From positions 1 through 5,363 of IMG/VR virus record IMGVR_UViG_2913123054_000002: a DNA stretch of 5,363 bases. One strand, 5' to 3'. The position numbers and the translations under genes were made by a program. This DNA is from a virus. Its lineage: Duplodnaviria; Heunggongvirae; Uroviricota; Caudoviricetes. This document shows, one piece after another, positions 1,694 to 5,363 of the stretch; within the stretch, counting starts at the first letter, position 1, and every line of letters begins with the position of its first letter. The notes beneath the pieces were generated by a model. It was not told the DNA's origin. It did not search any database and worked only from the letters and a program-made list of their open reading frames with translations.

Positions 1694-2116
1694 ATGGCAA
1701 AAGTATTTACACAAGAAGAGCGGGAAAAAATTAAGGGGCAGGTTGTTGAACTCGTGCGCCAGAGTGGGCGCGAGACGTTACGACAACTGGAAACCAAGAC
1801 AGGTGCGACAAGATATTTAATGAGCGTTCTCGCAAGAGAGCTGGTCGCCAGTGGTGATGTATACAACTCTGGCTACGGATTATTTCCCTCAGAACAGGCT
1901 CGTAAGGACTGGCAAAACGCCCGCAAAAAACTATCGAGGGCAAAGGTGAAGAAACAGGTTGTGGTTGATCCTGACCTTATCTGGTCATTACCCGACGGAG
2001 AAATACGCCGCTACGACAGGCGTATGAACATAATCTGTCGCGAGTGTCGGAAGAGCGAGGTTATGCAGCGCGTGCTGGCGTTTTATCAGAGGAATTTTCA
2101 GGAGGCGGCGCAGTGA
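1694..2116 (+). CDS. Hypothetical phage protein (140 aa), nin-region-like small gene
   Basis: ATG at 1694 with GGGGG (1684-1688) 5 nt upstream; follows the previous stop by 15 nt. Contains ICRECRK (CxxC). A TTG at 1679 is an alternative start. Stop TGA 2114-2116 overlaps the next start. Confidence 0.7.
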   Translation: MAKVFTQEEREKIKGQVVELVRQSGRETLRQLETKTGATRYLMSVLARELVASGDVYNSGYGLFPSEQARKDWQNARKKLSRAKVKKQVVVDPDLIWSLPDGEIRRYDRRMNIICRECRKSEVMQRVLAFYQRNFQEAAQ

Positions 2117-2319
2117 GCAGGATTGACTACCAGGAATTGGCTGCTGCTAACGCTTTCCTGGCGGATGTGCGGGCGGGGGCGTTTAACGACCTTTGCGCGG
2201 CGTTTGTCAGGCACGCAAAAATTGCAGGACTGGACGATGGCGATCTCGTTACGGTGAAAGAAGCGACTGATGCGCTGCTGCACTGTGCAGAACAGCTTCG
2301 GGAGGGATTCAAGCAATGA
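2113..2319 (+). CDS. Hypothetical small protein (68 aa)
   Basis: GTG at 2113 overlaps the upstream stop (GTGA), with AGGAGG at 2101-2106 at 6-nt spacing. The in-frame ATG at 2044 would overlap the upstream gene by 73 nt and has no SD, so GTG 2113 is preferred. Stop overlaps the next start (ATGA at 2316-2319). Confidence 0.6.
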   Translation: MSRIDYQELAAANAFLADVRAGAFNDLCAAFVRHAKIAGLDDGDLVTVKEATDALLHCAEQLREGFKQ

Positions 2320-2570
2320 GTGAATCAAAATGCCAGGTTAATGGCAATCAGATAGAACCGTGTGTGGCACTGGCAAAATCCCTTGAGCATGATGCTGAAT
2401 GCTCAGTAAGAAAAGGCTTACTGCTATACAAAATCTGGAATGAGAGTTTAACCCGTGGACCTGATTTGGTGATGTTGCGTTCCGGTGAGTTTTCTAAATC
2501 ACCAATTCGAGTTTCATTTTGCCCGTTCTGTGGTGAAAGTCTGAAAACGTGGGAGGAAACCAATGAGTGA
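2316..2570 (+). CDS. Hypothetical small Cys-containing protein (84 aa)
   Basis: ATG at 2316 overlaps the previous stop (ATGA). Cys at positions 6, 16, 29 and a C-terminal CPFCG motif suggest possible metal binding. Stop at 2568-2570 overlaps the next gene start. Confidence 0.7.
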   Translation: MSESKCQVNGNQIEPCVALAKSLEHDAECSVRKGLLLYKIWNESLTRGPDLVMLRSGEFSKSPIRVSFCPFCGESLKTWEETNE

Positions 2571-2991
2571 CCAATGGCGACCAGAAATTTGTCCGATAAC
2601 CGGACGTGCATTTTTTATGTGGATTGAGCATCCAACATTGGGAAATGTGCCGACATATGGTGGCCCATTAGATAGTTACACCATTCCAACAAAGGACGGT
2701 GACGGTGAGTTTTCATGTGAGCGTTATGATCATGATTTTGGCGGTTGGGTAGAAAGCGAATGTCTTGGGTTATATCTGATTGATGATAAAGAGCAATGCA
2801 GAGTCTATGAACTGGAGGAACGCGTTAAAGAGCTGGAGGCGCGGACAGTAGATCTTCCTCAACGGTTACAGCCGGGTGCTGATGGTTATGATGATTGGTA
2901 TGTACACAGCGCAGATGATGGTGAATATCTCAAAGCTGATGATGTTATCGCGGCAATCCGCGCCGCTAGTATTTGCATCAAAGGAGAGTGA
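2563..2991 (+). CDS. Hypothetical acidic phage protein (142 aa) with a short coiled-coil-like segment
   Basis: ATG at 2563 with GGGAGG (2551-2556) at 6-nt spacing; overlaps the upstream stop. Contains ELEERVKELEAR and an acidic C-terminal region (DGYDDWYVHSADDGEYLKADDV). It vaguely recalls Ead/Ea22-like prophage proteins; this is not verified. Confidence 0.72.
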   Translation: MSDQWRPEICPITGRAFFMWIEHPTLGNVPTYGGPLDSYTIPTKDGDGEFSCERYDHDFGGWVESECLGLYLIDDKEQCRVYELEERVKELEARTVDLPQRLQPGADGYDDWYVHSADDGEYLKADDVIAAIRAASICIKGE

Positions 2992-2992
2992 C

Positions 2993-3349
2993 GTGGAAAT
3001 AAAACCAGAAGATGAGTTAAGTAATATTGTTTTATTTCCGGTAAAAGAGGATGACCCACGTAATCAGGTTAATTTTCTTTATGAGCCATCGGAAAGACCA
3101 TATTGCCATCACGCTTCTGTTCGGGTTGATGAAAAAGAGCGTCAGGTCCGATGCAAAATCTGTGGCGCGGTTGTGGAACCATTTGACTGGATGCTCTCTG
3201 TGGCGAAAAGAGAAACCAGACTGGCAGATGATGTAAGGCTATTGCGCCAGGAGGAACAGGAAAGGCGGAAAAATATAGAAAAGCTAATTCAGATTGAGCG
3301 TAACGCGAAAGCACGGATACGCAGGGCGGCAAAAGCCAGAACTGAATAA
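2993..3349 (+). CDS. Hypothetical zinc-ribbon-like protein with a basic, coiled-coil-like C-terminal tail (118 aa)
   Basis: GTG at 2993, 1 nt after the upstream stop, with strong SD AAGGAGAG (2981-2988). The track start at 2876 lies inside the previous gene and gives an out-of-frame Met-rich artefact. Motif PYCHH-x17-CKICG, then a highly charged tail RLLRQEEQERRKNIEKLIQIERNAKARIRRAAKAR. Confidence 0.65.
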   Translation: MEIKPEDELSNIVLFPVKEDDPRNQVNFLYEPSERPYCHHASVRVDEKERQVRCKICGAVVEPFDWMLSVAKRETRLADDVRLLRQEEQERRKNIEKLIQIERNAKARIRRAAKARTE

Positions 3350-3420
3350 TAAAATCAGCGATGTAAATAAAATTTAATCCTTAACCGGAGGGATTTCTGC
3401 ACCCTCAAATCATCCGGAGG

Positions 3421-3436
3421 CCGCCCGAAAGGGCGG
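3421..3436 (+). other. GC-rich hairpin with a GAAA tetraloop (CCGCCC-GAAA-GGGCGG) in the intergenic spacer; candidate RNA regulatory or processing element, not a canonical terminator
   Basis: Perfect 6-bp G/C stem with a GNRA-type loop, read directly from the sequence. No U-tract follows on the plus strand (TAATAAAAAT). On the minus strand the T-run precedes rather than follows the stem. A flanking CCGGAG direct repeat at 3385-3390 and 3414-3419 gives additional pairing potential. Confidence 0.35.
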
Positions 3437-3472
3437 TAATAAAAATAGCTGAACTAATCGGAGAATAAAACG

Positions 3473-3667
3473 ATGAAAAACCGTAAAGCAAAAATTCTGT
3501 TAGCTCGCAGAAACGGTGTTGGGGTCTGGCGATGGTTGAGGATTAGTAACAGACGAGTGAGGTTGACGGGGTGTTGCGGGGTGATGGGTCACAGTTGTTG
3601 CAAAAAGCCCAACGCGGCACAAAACCGCTGGAGAAATCACAGTTCTAAGCAAATTAAATGGGAGTGA
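3473..3667 (+). CDS. Hypothetical small basic Trp/Arg/Cys-rich protein (64 aa); coding status uncertain
   Basis: ATG at 3473 with GGAGA (3460-3464) at 8-nt spacing; the stop at 3665-3667 sits 1 nt before the next start, suggesting coupling. Against: unusual composition, several rare Arg codons (AGA, AGG, CGA), and G-rich DNA with GGGGTG repeats. Confidence 0.42.
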   Translation: MKNRKAKILLARRNGVGVWRWLRISNRRVRLTGCCGVMGHSCCKKPNAAQNRWRNHSSKQIKWE

Positions 3668-3668
3668 T

Positions 3669-3887
3669 ATGACTACACTATTCAGGAAAAATTATCCGCG
3701 AAAGAGCAGAGCAACAGAATTCCTGTTTCTCATTCTGTTTATCGTATTGATGACACCGATATCCCCGCTAATTTTTGTCTGGGTAATCGGGAAAATAATT
3801 GAGCCCGTTATTGAATTGTATAACGACGTGGTATGGGCGTCGTTTAACGCACTACACAATAAAATTAATCCGTATAAGGAAGGTTGA
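3669..3887 (+). CDS. Small single-pass membrane protein (72 aa)
   Basis: ATG at 3669 with GGGAG (3660-3664) upstream. Basic N-terminus (RKNYPRKSR) followed by a hydrophobic stretch FLFLILFIVLMTPISPLIFVWVIGKII. Stop TGA at 3885-3887 is 1 nt before the next start. Confidence 0.6.
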   Translation: MTTLFRKNYPRKSRATEFLFLILFIVLMTPISPLIFVWVIGKIIEPVIELYNDVVWASFNALHNKINPYKEG

Positions 3888-3888
3888 A

Positions 3889-4560
3889 ATGACTGAATTA
3901 ACCAAAGAACAATTAGTCGAAGAAGCTAAATTAAAAATAGCGATTGCGAAATGCCACCCAAATTCAGGGATGGCACAGGTAGAGGGTGAGTTATTCAAAA
4001 TTGCACTGGCATCACTGGAAGCAGAGCCAGTGGCGTGGAAGGCAACCTTCACGCAAATTGATAATGAATATAATACGTTCACTGCTCTGTATTCTGACAA
4101 AGCAGAAGCCGAACGGTGGGTGCAACTGCATGAAATAGGTGACTTTCGGGCAGAAATAACACCGCTTTACGCAGCGCCGCCAGCGATGGTAGTGCCTGAT
4201 GAAATGGATTTGCTTACCTGTCATCTCGACGGTGTAACTGAAACATATGCTGATGGCTGGAACGCCTGCCGCGTCGCCATGCTTCAGGCCGGAAACTTTC
4301 GGGAAAATAAGAATTCGTCAACCAACTCTCCGGGAACTCCGGCTGGCTGGGTAAGCTGTAGTGATGCAGTTCCTGCGGAATACTGCGATGTGATTCTTCG
4401 CGATGATCTCGGGAATGTATTCCCCGGTTCCTGGGATAAGGTTTTTTGCCCCATTCGTGGCGGGAATAAGATGGCTTTTGTGGACAAAGACGGCATCGAA
4501 GTAGGGAGCTCAACTCACTGGATGCCGCTACCGGAACCACCGCAGGAGGTGAATCAATGA
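3889..4560 (+). CDS. DUF551-like prophage protein (223 aa)
   Basis: ATG at 3889 with AAGGAAGG (3876-3883) at 5-nt spacing; the track start at 3799 overlaps the previous gene. The C-terminal region (GWVSCSDAVPAEY…SSTHWMPLPEPPQ) matches the W…HWMPLPEPP signature I recall for DUF551 proteins in enterobacterial prophages; not verified by search. Confidence 0.75.
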   Translation: MTELTKEQLVEEAKLKIAIAKCHPNSGMAQVEGELFKIALASLEAEPVAWKATFTQIDNEYNTFTALYSDKAEAERWVQLHEIGDFRAEITPLYAAPPAMVVPDEMDLLTCHLDGVTETYADGWNACRVAMLQAGNFRENKNSSTNSPGTPAGWVSCSDAVPAEYCDVILRDDLGNVFPGSWDKVFCPIRGGNKMAFVDKDGIEVGSSTHWMPLPEPPQEVNQ

Positions 4561-4640
4561 CCTGGCCTGAGGCATTCACCACGGTAGGAATCGCAATGGC
4601 GGTGGCACTGGTTGTGTATTCGATTTGCCGCTGGGGATAA
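4557..4640 (+). CDS. 27-aa hydrophobic micro-protein (MTWPEAFTTVGIAMAVALVVYSICRWG), absent from the ORF track
   Basis: ATG at 4557-4559 overlaps the upstream stop (ATGA). A perfect SD AGGAGGT (4544-4550) sits at 6-nt spacing. One predicted transmembrane-like segment. The stop TAA at 4638-4640 lies 17 nt before the terminator stem. Confidence 0.45.
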   Translation: MTWPEAFTTVGIAMAVALVVYSICRWG

Positions 4641-4657
4641 AAACTGTCAAATAGAAA

Positions 4658-4676
4658 AGCCCCGATAGCCGGGGCT
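4658..4676. terminator. Bidirectional rho-independent terminator (AGCCCCG-ATAGC-CGGGGCT)
   Basis: 7-bp GC-rich stem with a 5-nt loop. On the minus strand it is followed by TTTTCTATTT, a strong U-tract. On the plus strand it is preceded by AAAA and followed by AAATTTAT, a weaker one. It sits between convergent genes ending at 4640 (+) and 4685 (-). Confidence 0.7.
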
Positions 4677-4684
4677 AAATTTAT

Positions 4685-4840
4685 CTACGATTCACATTTT
4701 GTGCATTTTGGAATTGGGAAGGCTTTTGCTTTCACTGGGTATACGCGTTTTCCTGATTCATCGTGATAGAAGCGACGGAACAAAATTTCGCAAGGTTCTC
4801 CACATTTACTGCATATTTTTTTATTAACAGTCTTTTCCAT
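4685..4840 (-). CDS. Small zinc-ribbon protein (51 aa, MEKTVNKKICSKCGEPCEILFRRFYHDESGKRVYPVKAKAFPIPKCTKCES), absent from the ORF track
   Basis: Reverse-strand ATG at 4840-4838 with AGGA 8 nt upstream; stop TAG at 4687-4685, immediately before the terminator, whose strong U-tract is on this strand. Two CxxC pairs (C10/C13 and C46/C49) are typical of a zinc ribbon. It is convergent to the upstream operon and lies in AT-richer DNA. Confidence 0.6.
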   Translation of the reverse strand: MEKTVNKKICSKCGEPCEILFRRFYHDESGKRVYPVKAKAFPIPKCTKCES

Positions 4841-5014
4841 AAAAGAGTTCCTGTATAAAAACACAAACTGTATTCCTGTTCAGTATTGCGTTTATCTACA
4901 GACCTGATACCCTTGCACATGTCTTTTCTGTGTGCTAAAGGGTGTCAGATCATTACGATCAACCTCCTTATCAATCACACTAGTTGCGATGCTGTAACAT
5001 CACAATCTCTATAG

Positions 5015-5052
5015 CCCCTTGCATCTTGAGTTTTCAGGACAAGGGGTTTTCT
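5015..5052 (+). terminator. Terminator-like extended hairpin followed by TTTTCT on the plus strand; alternatively a structured element in the minus-strand leader
   Basis: CCCCTTG (5015-5021) pairs with CAAGGGG (5040-5046). An inner stem TCTTGA (5024-5029) pairs with TCAGGA (5034-5039), including one G-U pair, around a GTTT loop. TTTTCT follows at 5047-5052. No U-tract follows on the minus strand. Confidence 0.4.
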
Positions 5053-5327
5053 ATGCTCATAACCGAGACCATCTGATCCTGGCGTAAACAAGCCCGTGGT
5101 GCAACCCCTTGCAAGCATGTAACTCATTGAAAAATGATCATTTTATCTGTTGACACGGAATAACAAACTGTCATTGTGCGGCTATGGCAAGTGGCAAATG
5201 CTTATAAATCATATGGATATAAATAGTACAGAAAGAGTTGTTTTCTCTAGGATATGAGTATGCGTCTAATGCTGATTGGTTGAATTTTGTTCTTGTTTTA
5301 AAGGGTAAGAGTTTAAAGTGTTGGCAG

Positions 5328-5363
5328 TGATGTATTGGATAGTTAGAATTGCTGCGGGTGCTT
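5328..5363 (+). CDS. Possible 5' end of a plus-strand gene running off the window (…VLAVMYWIVRIAAGA…)
   Basis: This is the only frame open from 5319 to the window end. Candidate starts are GTG 5328 and ATG 5340, with a weak GAG/AAGGG upstream. Only 12 codons are visible, so this is very tentative. Confidence 0.2.

Follow-up and report, generated by a model that had tools for sequence, protein, structure and literature searches.

Does a run of tightly packed small genes in a prophage represent one functional module, or only the genes that occupy one place at present? This question is raised by positions 3350-4676 of the IMG/VR record IMGVR_UViG_2913123054_000002, a whole 5363-bp contig of Escherichia sp. 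E4385 (hereafter, the window), where four open reading frames (ORFs) follow one another, each with its own Shine-Dalgarno (SD) sequence. A sequence-only reading had taken them as a four-gene cassette of the kind used in superinfection exclusion, anti-defence or host takeover. Comparison with related prophages makes it likely that they are instead the current contents of a hypervariable early accessory slot, not a dedicated four-gene machine. The host element is a Rac-like lambdoid prophage of the ydaV-DUF1627-DUF977 replication-module type, found in Escherichia and Shigella. The four ORFs are arranged as follows.

ORF1, plus strand: ATG at 3473, stop at 3665-3667, SD GGAG at 3460-3463.
ORF2, plus strand, 3669-3887: ATG at 3669 after a 1-nt gap, TGA at 3885-3887, SD GGGAG at 3660-3664.
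ORF3, plus strand, 3889-4560: ATG at 3889 after a 1-nt gap, SD AAGGAAGG at 3876-3883.
ORF4, plus strand, 4557-4640: ATG overlapping the ORF3 TGA (4558-4560) as ATGA, stop at 4638-4640, SD AGGAGG at 4544-4549.

The slot was defined as the stretch from a conserved leader, described below, to the first ORF4-like gene, and was collected from 237 IMG/VR loci retrieved through ORF1, ORF2 or ORF3, plus loci anchored on the leader alone. Loci anchored on this left element only gave an unbiased subset of 49 unique slots; all counts for E. coli were made among 5426 complete genomes. The 96 non-identical slots are 636-2899 bp in length and hold 28 gene families in 45 orders. The order ORF1>DUF4014>DUF551>ORF4, in which the second and third names are the families of ORF2 and ORF3, was seen only in the window and in its sister assembly, a 58-kb contig (L006) that carries the same genes. 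In E. coli O157:H7, the arrangement is DUF4014-DUF551-ORF4-hok. At least 80% of the stretch 3350-4700 was found in none of the complete E. coli genomes. In the unbiased subset, ORF1 was present in 1 slot, DUF4014 in 22, and all four families jointly in 1. Synteny comparison had been proposed as a check on whether the four genes travel together, and it showed that they assort independently of one another across the fetched loci. This result contradicts the idea of a co-inherited cassette and is an outcome that the sequence-only reading had itself named as refuting it. The assignment to a prophage accessory slot was borne out, as the same position is filled by exchangeable small genes in related prophages. 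Among the remaining families in the slots are DUF7167, an HNH endonuclease, and one whose similarity to Mom is weak (E 7e-5, below the cutoff).

Inspection of the junctions between slot genes revealed a short SD-containing sequence, roughly GTAAACAYTGGCATCAAAGGAGAGTGAT followed by the start codon (ATG), that recurs between unlike gene pairs. In our family labels, it was seen at DUF551/N>F8, DUF551/N>DUF4014, F8>DUF4014, F12>F6, DUF551/N>F12 and F18>F12, and the ORF1/ORF2 junction of the window, AAATGGGAGTGATATG, is a variant of it. Unrelated slot proteins have similar end residues (..IRIKGE, ..LRTKGE, ..RSNKGE, ..QEVNQ), since the SD of the next gene falls within their last codons; C-terminal similarity among slot families is therefore no evidence of homology. 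As a separate observation, an HNH endonuclease gene (PF01844) lies between the DUF4014 and DUF551 genes in 18 of the 96 unique slots (L038, L002, L036 and others), and this enzyme could promote gene conversion there.

The slot opens with an unannotated intergenic leader, the parts of which are listed here.

3373-3440, plus strand: conserved left-boundary element of 68 nt, intergenic.
3379-3382, plus strand: UCCU of the leader.
3388-3392 with 3402-3406, plus strand: hairpin 1, GAGGG with CCCTC.
3416-3420, plus strand: SD-like GGAGG.
3420-3437, plus strand: hairpin 2, GCCGCCC-GAAA-GGGCGGT.
3438-3472, plus strand: relic start of a displaced first gene, then the SD of ORF1, recognized by slot-leader comparison.

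The left element has a mean identity of 92% across 32 variants and is present in 1526 complete E. coli genomes (28%), being annotated in none of them. Its position is always 3′ of DUF977/DUF1627/ydaV and 5′ of hok, and at least eight families occupy the place of the first gene directly after it. In 83 of the 96 unique slots, the first start codon is located 1-8 nt past hairpin 2 with no intervening SD; the sole SD-like sequence of the leader, AGGAGG, is directly 5′ of this hairpin, which has a predicted energy of -14.4 kcal/mol. These features suggest a leader that would act as a shared translation-initiation socket for the first slot gene, in which the stable GNRA hairpin 2 would bring the only SD next to the first start codon and the upstream UCCU may pair with that SD. 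The spacer 3350-3472 as a whole folds better than its shuffled versions (z -3.35), in agreement with the earlier description of it as structured. The left element gave no match to Rfam at E ≤ 1, and covariation was not above controls: 96% of the cells were paired, the same was true of 146-215 of 500 shuffles, and there was one compensatory pair only. In the window itself, the arrangement is, as judged from sequence, a relic in which ORF1 uses its own SD. The relic covers about 30 nt after hairpin 2: AATAAAAATAGCTGAACTAATCGGAGAA is the counterpart of the AATGAAAAATGACTGAATTAACCAAAGA or AATAAAAATGGCTGAACTAATCGGAGAATAA seen in other slots, and its ATG has become ATA. A simple consensus scan, which can miss a weak or activator-dependent promoter, found no sigma-70-like promoter in 3350-3472, and expression in the lysogen is therefore not indicated.

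The right boundary is formed by a single small gene.

4544-4640, plus strand: ORF4 unit, consisting of the SD AGGAGG (4544-4549) and the 27-codon gene MTWPEAFTTVGIAMAVALVVYSICRWG, with a single hydrophobic helix.

ORF4 is intact, with 27 codons, in 49 of 57 unique variants, giving 26 distinct peptides, all with WPEAF..G..A..Y.ICRWG. Divergent versions such as MNWPEAFAITGVAMAIAFLVYVICRWG and MSWPDAIVTLGMVFAVAFVVYSICRWG retain the 27 codons, the SD and this motif, and the ratio of nonsynonymous to synonymous change (pN/pS) is low only in the proposed frame (0.275, as against 1.5 and 1.7 in the other two); for these reasons, we regard ORF4 as a real gene. The preceding gene overlaps it as ATGA in 83 of 92 slots and may have any of three unrelated C-termini: that of DUF551 (...WMPLPEPPQEVNQ), a helical type ending in ...KLPDKAMDYLKRNGLISVEDILR, and an o118-like type ending in ...NIEQEVNR. 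The shared end QEVN[QR] arises because the SD of ORF4 is read in the upstream frame. When the window was aligned to other prophages, homology stopped at 4640-4649 in 145 of 218 matches. ORF4 is present in at least 1055 of the E. coli genomes, about a fifth. Among species-representative genomes, an IUPAC pattern scan placed it in Escherichia and Shigella only, if three very small contigs, contaminants by their appearance, are disregarded. It matched no Pfam, PHROG or NCBIfam family and is unannotated in the two RefSeq loci inspected. A 90% cluster joining ORF4 with 121-aa DUF551 proteins appeared to indicate a fusion; the sequences show none, and this was set aside as a clustering artefact.

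Direct reading confirmed the gene organization of all four ORFs as it had been described, with 1-nt gaps or the ATGA overlap and a separate SD for each, and the ORFs are real genes coupled in translation, with purifying selection acting on the proposed frame only. The in-frame pN/pS is 0.35 for ORF1 (1.06 and 0.78 in the other two frames) and 0.21 for ORF2 (0.68 and 1.46). Hydropathy gave one span in each of the two products previously called membrane proteins, at residues 19-37 of ORF2 and 10-24 of ORF4, and the statement that none of the four products resembles a lysis, replication or Q protein also holds.

ORF1 encodes 64 aa and belongs to phrog_1380 (E 2.2e-27, positions 1-60 of 62), with no Pfam or NCBIfam family matched. 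It had been described as a basic Trp/Arg/Cys-rich protein. The basic character is evident (17 K+R, 1 D+E), and the part concerning Cys was not retained: relatives conserve the N-terminal MKNRKAKIL..SNRR and the C-terminal SAAQNRWKNH, and the middle, including the Cys residues, is variable. Zinc binding was ruled out, as CCGVMGHSCC is not kept in the relatives, which number only 8-21. A 909-aa protein with 12 ORF1-like stretches (P0179) is a low-complexity repeat protein and irrelevant to ORF1. ORF2, of 72 aa, has a basic N-terminus before its hydrophobic span and matches PF13198 (DUF4014) over profile positions 1-71 of 72 with 94.9 bits (cutoff 23.2), as well as phrog_1832 (E 1e-45). YdfC of K-12, also of 72 aa and encoded in the Qin dicB operon, was considered as a DUF4014 homologue and rejected (E 0.4).

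For the 223-aa ORF3, the DUF551 call was verified by a match of residues 153-219 to PF04448 above the gathering cutoff (62 bits, cutoff 22), and the conserved motifs WISCSD and HWMPLPEPP are both found. Its domains are divided as below.

Residues 1-97: alpha/beta N-domain.
Residues 98-151: disordered linker.
Residues ~152-219 (nt 4342-4545): DUF551, a small beta-barrel.

The AlphaFold2 model of full ORF3, which shows this division with a beta-rich DUF551, has a predicted local distance difference test score (pLDDT) of 67, and the model of the DUF551 domain only reaches 82.6. DUF551 is predicted to adopt an SH3/Tudor-like binding fold, and the model would be consistent with a binding module, assigning no function. 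RefSeq gives two starts for ORF3, 223 aa (WP_240727106.1) and 196 aa from M28 (WP_339374559.1); it is the longer form that starts behind the SD and is coupled to ORF2 across the 1-nt gap, and homologues keep its N-terminal MTELTKEQL. In proteins of this type, the N-domain and the DUF551 domain recombine separately, and published descriptions of DUF551 as a portable domain concern Ea22 variant V2 (PMC10834534) and YfdS of CPS-53 (PMC4776307). A literature search for DUF4014, the ORF4 peptide and 933W L0065-L0068 returned nothing relevant, and the PHROG label 'released from the phage upon host infection' could not be traced in the literature and sits oddly with the early-operon location.

The surroundings of the slot are best followed in the sister contig, where the order is recE/kil, ydaS/ydaT, replication module, slot region, hok, Rem, DUF1367, YbcO, a Q-like gene and lysis genes. 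Right behind these lysis genes (L006 16595-17738), we observed genes of heat-labile enterotoxin type II (PF01375 Enterotoxin_a and PF06453 LT-IIB). Upstream of the slot, the window contains the following genes.

148-894: DnaC-like ydaV, replication module.
917-1678: DUF1627, replication module.
1694-2116: DUF977, replication module.
2113-3349: four small ORFs of unknown-function families, between DUF977 and the slot.
2993-3349: 118-aa gene of phrog_1621, with CxxC...CxxC followed by a coiled coil, adjoining the slot.

The genes of 2113-3349 had been called nin-like. Searches of Pfam, PHROG and NCBIfam gave no Nin family (NinB, NinE, NinG and others), only PHROGs of unknown function, and the name is not supported. 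Gene callers differ on the start of the 118-aa gene (2942 or 2993). Its relatives sit within the slot, directly 5′ of ORF4, in 12 other unique slots, and the gene therefore belongs to the same shuffling pool.

Downstream of ORF4, the window departs from the arrangement that we regard as basal, in which a promoter-like TTGCGG-17-TAGAAT begins about 8 nt past the ORF4 stop and the hok ORF lies 188-211 nt from ORF4. The relevant features are these.

4641-5335: lineage-specific insert of ~0.7 kb, between the ORF4 stop and the hok promoter.
4658-4676: terminator-like hairpin that passes the scan on both strands, with the tails TTTTCTATTT (minus) and AAATTTATCT (plus).
4685-4840, minus strand: 51-aa CxxC...CxxC ORF in the insert, convergent with the slot genes.
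5321-5349, plus strand: promoter-like TTGGCA-17-TAGAAT, counterpart of the basal TTGCGG-17-TAGAAT before hok.
L006 10365-10577: hok.

The whole insert is present in only 1 of the complete E. coli genomes. The hairpin had been regarded as a bidirectional terminator bounding the four genes; it does pass on both strands, and its role as a boundary is not supported, as it belongs to the insert. Of its two T-runs, that of the minus strand is the better one, and in other prophages ORF4 is followed by different sequences or by none. Most likely, the hairpin ends the convergent gene 4685-4840, the product of which forms a single-member protein cluster found on 8 contigs, with no significant family match in Pfam, PHROG, NCBIfam or PADLOC. 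The insert also contains a second terminator-like hairpin at ~5016-5054, CCCCTTG...CAAGGGG followed by TTTTCTAT, and three non-coding direct repeats, (A/C)CCCTTGCA, at 4909-4917, 5015-5023 and 5105-5113 (spacing 106 and 90 nt). Inserts between the ORF4 stop and the hok promoter range from 0.37 kb to more than 3 kb across loci. That of E. coli CEA224S (L002 5992-7631) carries a hypothetical gene and a KwaB-like (Kiwa) gene, and that of strain 25-07233 (L369 2936-5044) a Dcm methyltransferase, an O-methyltransferase and an ATP-binding protein. The gap between ORF4 and hok is an insertion hotspot, and cargo of the defence type seems to lie there rather than in the four-gene slot.

Taken together, the slot lies between the replication module and hok, opens with the 68-nt leader and closes with ORF4, and 0.6-2.9 kb of small genes between these edges are swapped gene by gene. 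As to the products, we propose that they would be early proteins of the exo-xis/ea type that modulate the host and are not essential. ORF1 would contribute a small basic protein, ORF2 and ORF4 would supply putative inner-membrane proteins, and in ORF3 a portable, SH3-like binding domain, DUF551, would carry a variable N-domain. Several points weigh against this overall reading. About half of the slots were sampled through ORF1, ORF2 or ORF3, which introduces a bias, but the subset anchored on the element gives the same picture; the IMG/VR loci are mostly prophages of isolate genomes, many of them closely related. We infer the hairpin-bridged SD from geometry and predicted stability only, with covariation no better than in the controls. 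The sigma-70 consensus scan may have overlooked a weak or activator-dependent promoter. On this reading, the tight packing of small prophage genes does not make a functional module, and the slot is a well-delimited and very common site of gene exchange in Escherichia prophages, as judged from the frequency of its left edge. The constant parts, namely the unannotated ORF4, the 68-nt leader and the insertion hotspot between ORF4 and hok, are then worth following up.

Among the alternatives, the one that survives best is that the slot genes are individual anti-defence or host-takeover effectors swapped in an arms race, with DUF551 adaptors delivering variable N-domains to a host target. The very high turnover, the apparently early expression, the weak Mom-like match in the pool and the predicted binding fold of DUF551 would all fit, as would the fusion of DUF551 to many N-domains, including the DUF550 MazG-like one (P0100; PMC10834534). 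Profile searches of the slot region with Pfam, PHROG and NCBIfam matched no defence, exclusion, lysis or nin family, only families of unknown function, and we consider this explanation possible though unlikely. Somewhat more doubtful still is an extension of our own proposal, in which the slot would be a recombination-based expression socket: the leader RNA, with its anti-SD, SD and GNRA hairpin, would promote the translation of any gene that is swapped in, and the 27-aa membrane protein would be an invariant partner, possibly acting with the variable proteins or with Hok. If true, this would amount to an integron-like cassette logic in lambdoid prophages, operating through homologous recombination.

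ORF4 might also work with the neighbouring hok/sok toxin locus and not with the slot, perhaps by modulating Hok as a membrane peptide. Both are small membrane peptides, hok is located downstream of ORF4 in 174 of 231 contexts, and the basal distances given above are short. However, the ATGA overlap couples ORF4 to the slot gene before it, its stop codon is often the exact point where homology ends, with at least eight different sequences beyond, and 21 loci have more than 3 kb after ORF4 and no hok; we therefore find this explanation improbable. The original view, that the membrane proteins and the DUF551 protein act together as one functional module, can appeal to the tight translational coupling, the two membrane products, the accessory location and the KwaB-like defence gene nearby in another strain. 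Nevertheless, the co-occurrence of the families and the presence of ORF1 in a single unbiased slot, the restriction of the gene order to one lineage, and the location of the KwaB-like gene outside the slot, after ORF4, all argue against it. PADLOC gave no match at E ≤ 0.1 for ORF1-ORF4, and together with the lack of a promoter-like site for lysogen expression in the spacer scan, this leaves superinfection exclusion and anti-defence without support; we judge the single module very unlikely. Least probable of all is that ORF1 or ORF4, or both, are non-genes conserved only as DNA-level boundary sequence: both are short, ORF4 is missing from the inspected annotations and ORF1 is conserved mainly at its two ends, but low pN/pS is confined to the proposed frame and the divergent ORF4 versions keep their 27 codons, SD and motif despite many nucleotide changes.

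We next compared the accessory slot with known systems. It resembles a moron, which is an autonomous promoter-gene-terminator insert of lambdoid prophages, in being accessory DNA between conserved genes, and the 0.7-kb insert does have a gene and a terminator; unlike a moron, the four-gene stretch has neither a promoter-like site (consensus scan) nor a dedicated terminator. Hairpin-bridged, or split, SD sites are known in T4 genes 38 and 25. The slot is similar in that a stable hairpin separates its only SD from a start codon ~24-31 nt further on and would bring the two together, and differs in that bridging by the slot leader is predicted, without covariation support, and is a relic in this window. 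A model in which boundary sequences guide the mosaicism of lambdoid phages is attributed, reportedly, to Susskind and Botstein (1978) and Clark et al. (2001). PMC3029335 cites a model of this kind, based on conserved sequences at gene junctions. The slot agrees with this model in its short conserved junctions between unrelated neighbours and its conserved flanks around a variable interior. The difference is that the slot junctions coincide with SD sequences and stop/start overlaps, and that the flanks are a small gene and a structured leader.

The closest counterpart is the exo-xis (early-left) region of the Stx phage 933W, which draws on the same gene pool in the order ORF1-like > L0068 > L0067 (DUF4014) > L0066 > L0065 (DUF551); the early-left region of phage Dewey does so as well. 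Amino acid identity to 933W is 93% between ORF2 and L0067, 64% for ORF1, and 39% for DUF551 (L0065, EaA-like). In 933W (L005 2601-2768 and 2719-3006), the ORF1 homologue is unannotated and overlaps the annotated start of L0068, the true start of which is probably the internal MAIAASY.... The two regions differ in location, as the window genes follow the replication module and precede hok in the early-right operon, and are not between exo and xis; 933W has neither the 68-nt leader nor ORF4, and the window slot has both. They are alike in their small early genes, in being highly mosaic, and in the use of DUF551 as a portable C-terminal domain (PMC10834534; PMC4776307; PMC8614690). The exo-xis genes act early and modulate the choice between lysis and lysogeny without being essential (PMC8614690), and since the region is reported to sway this decision, it also bears on toxin release, which gives significance to a gene pool common to the slot and the exo-xis region of Shiga-toxin phages. 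The region studied here thus brings known families together in a new combination, within an early accessory region of a mosaic kind that is already known.

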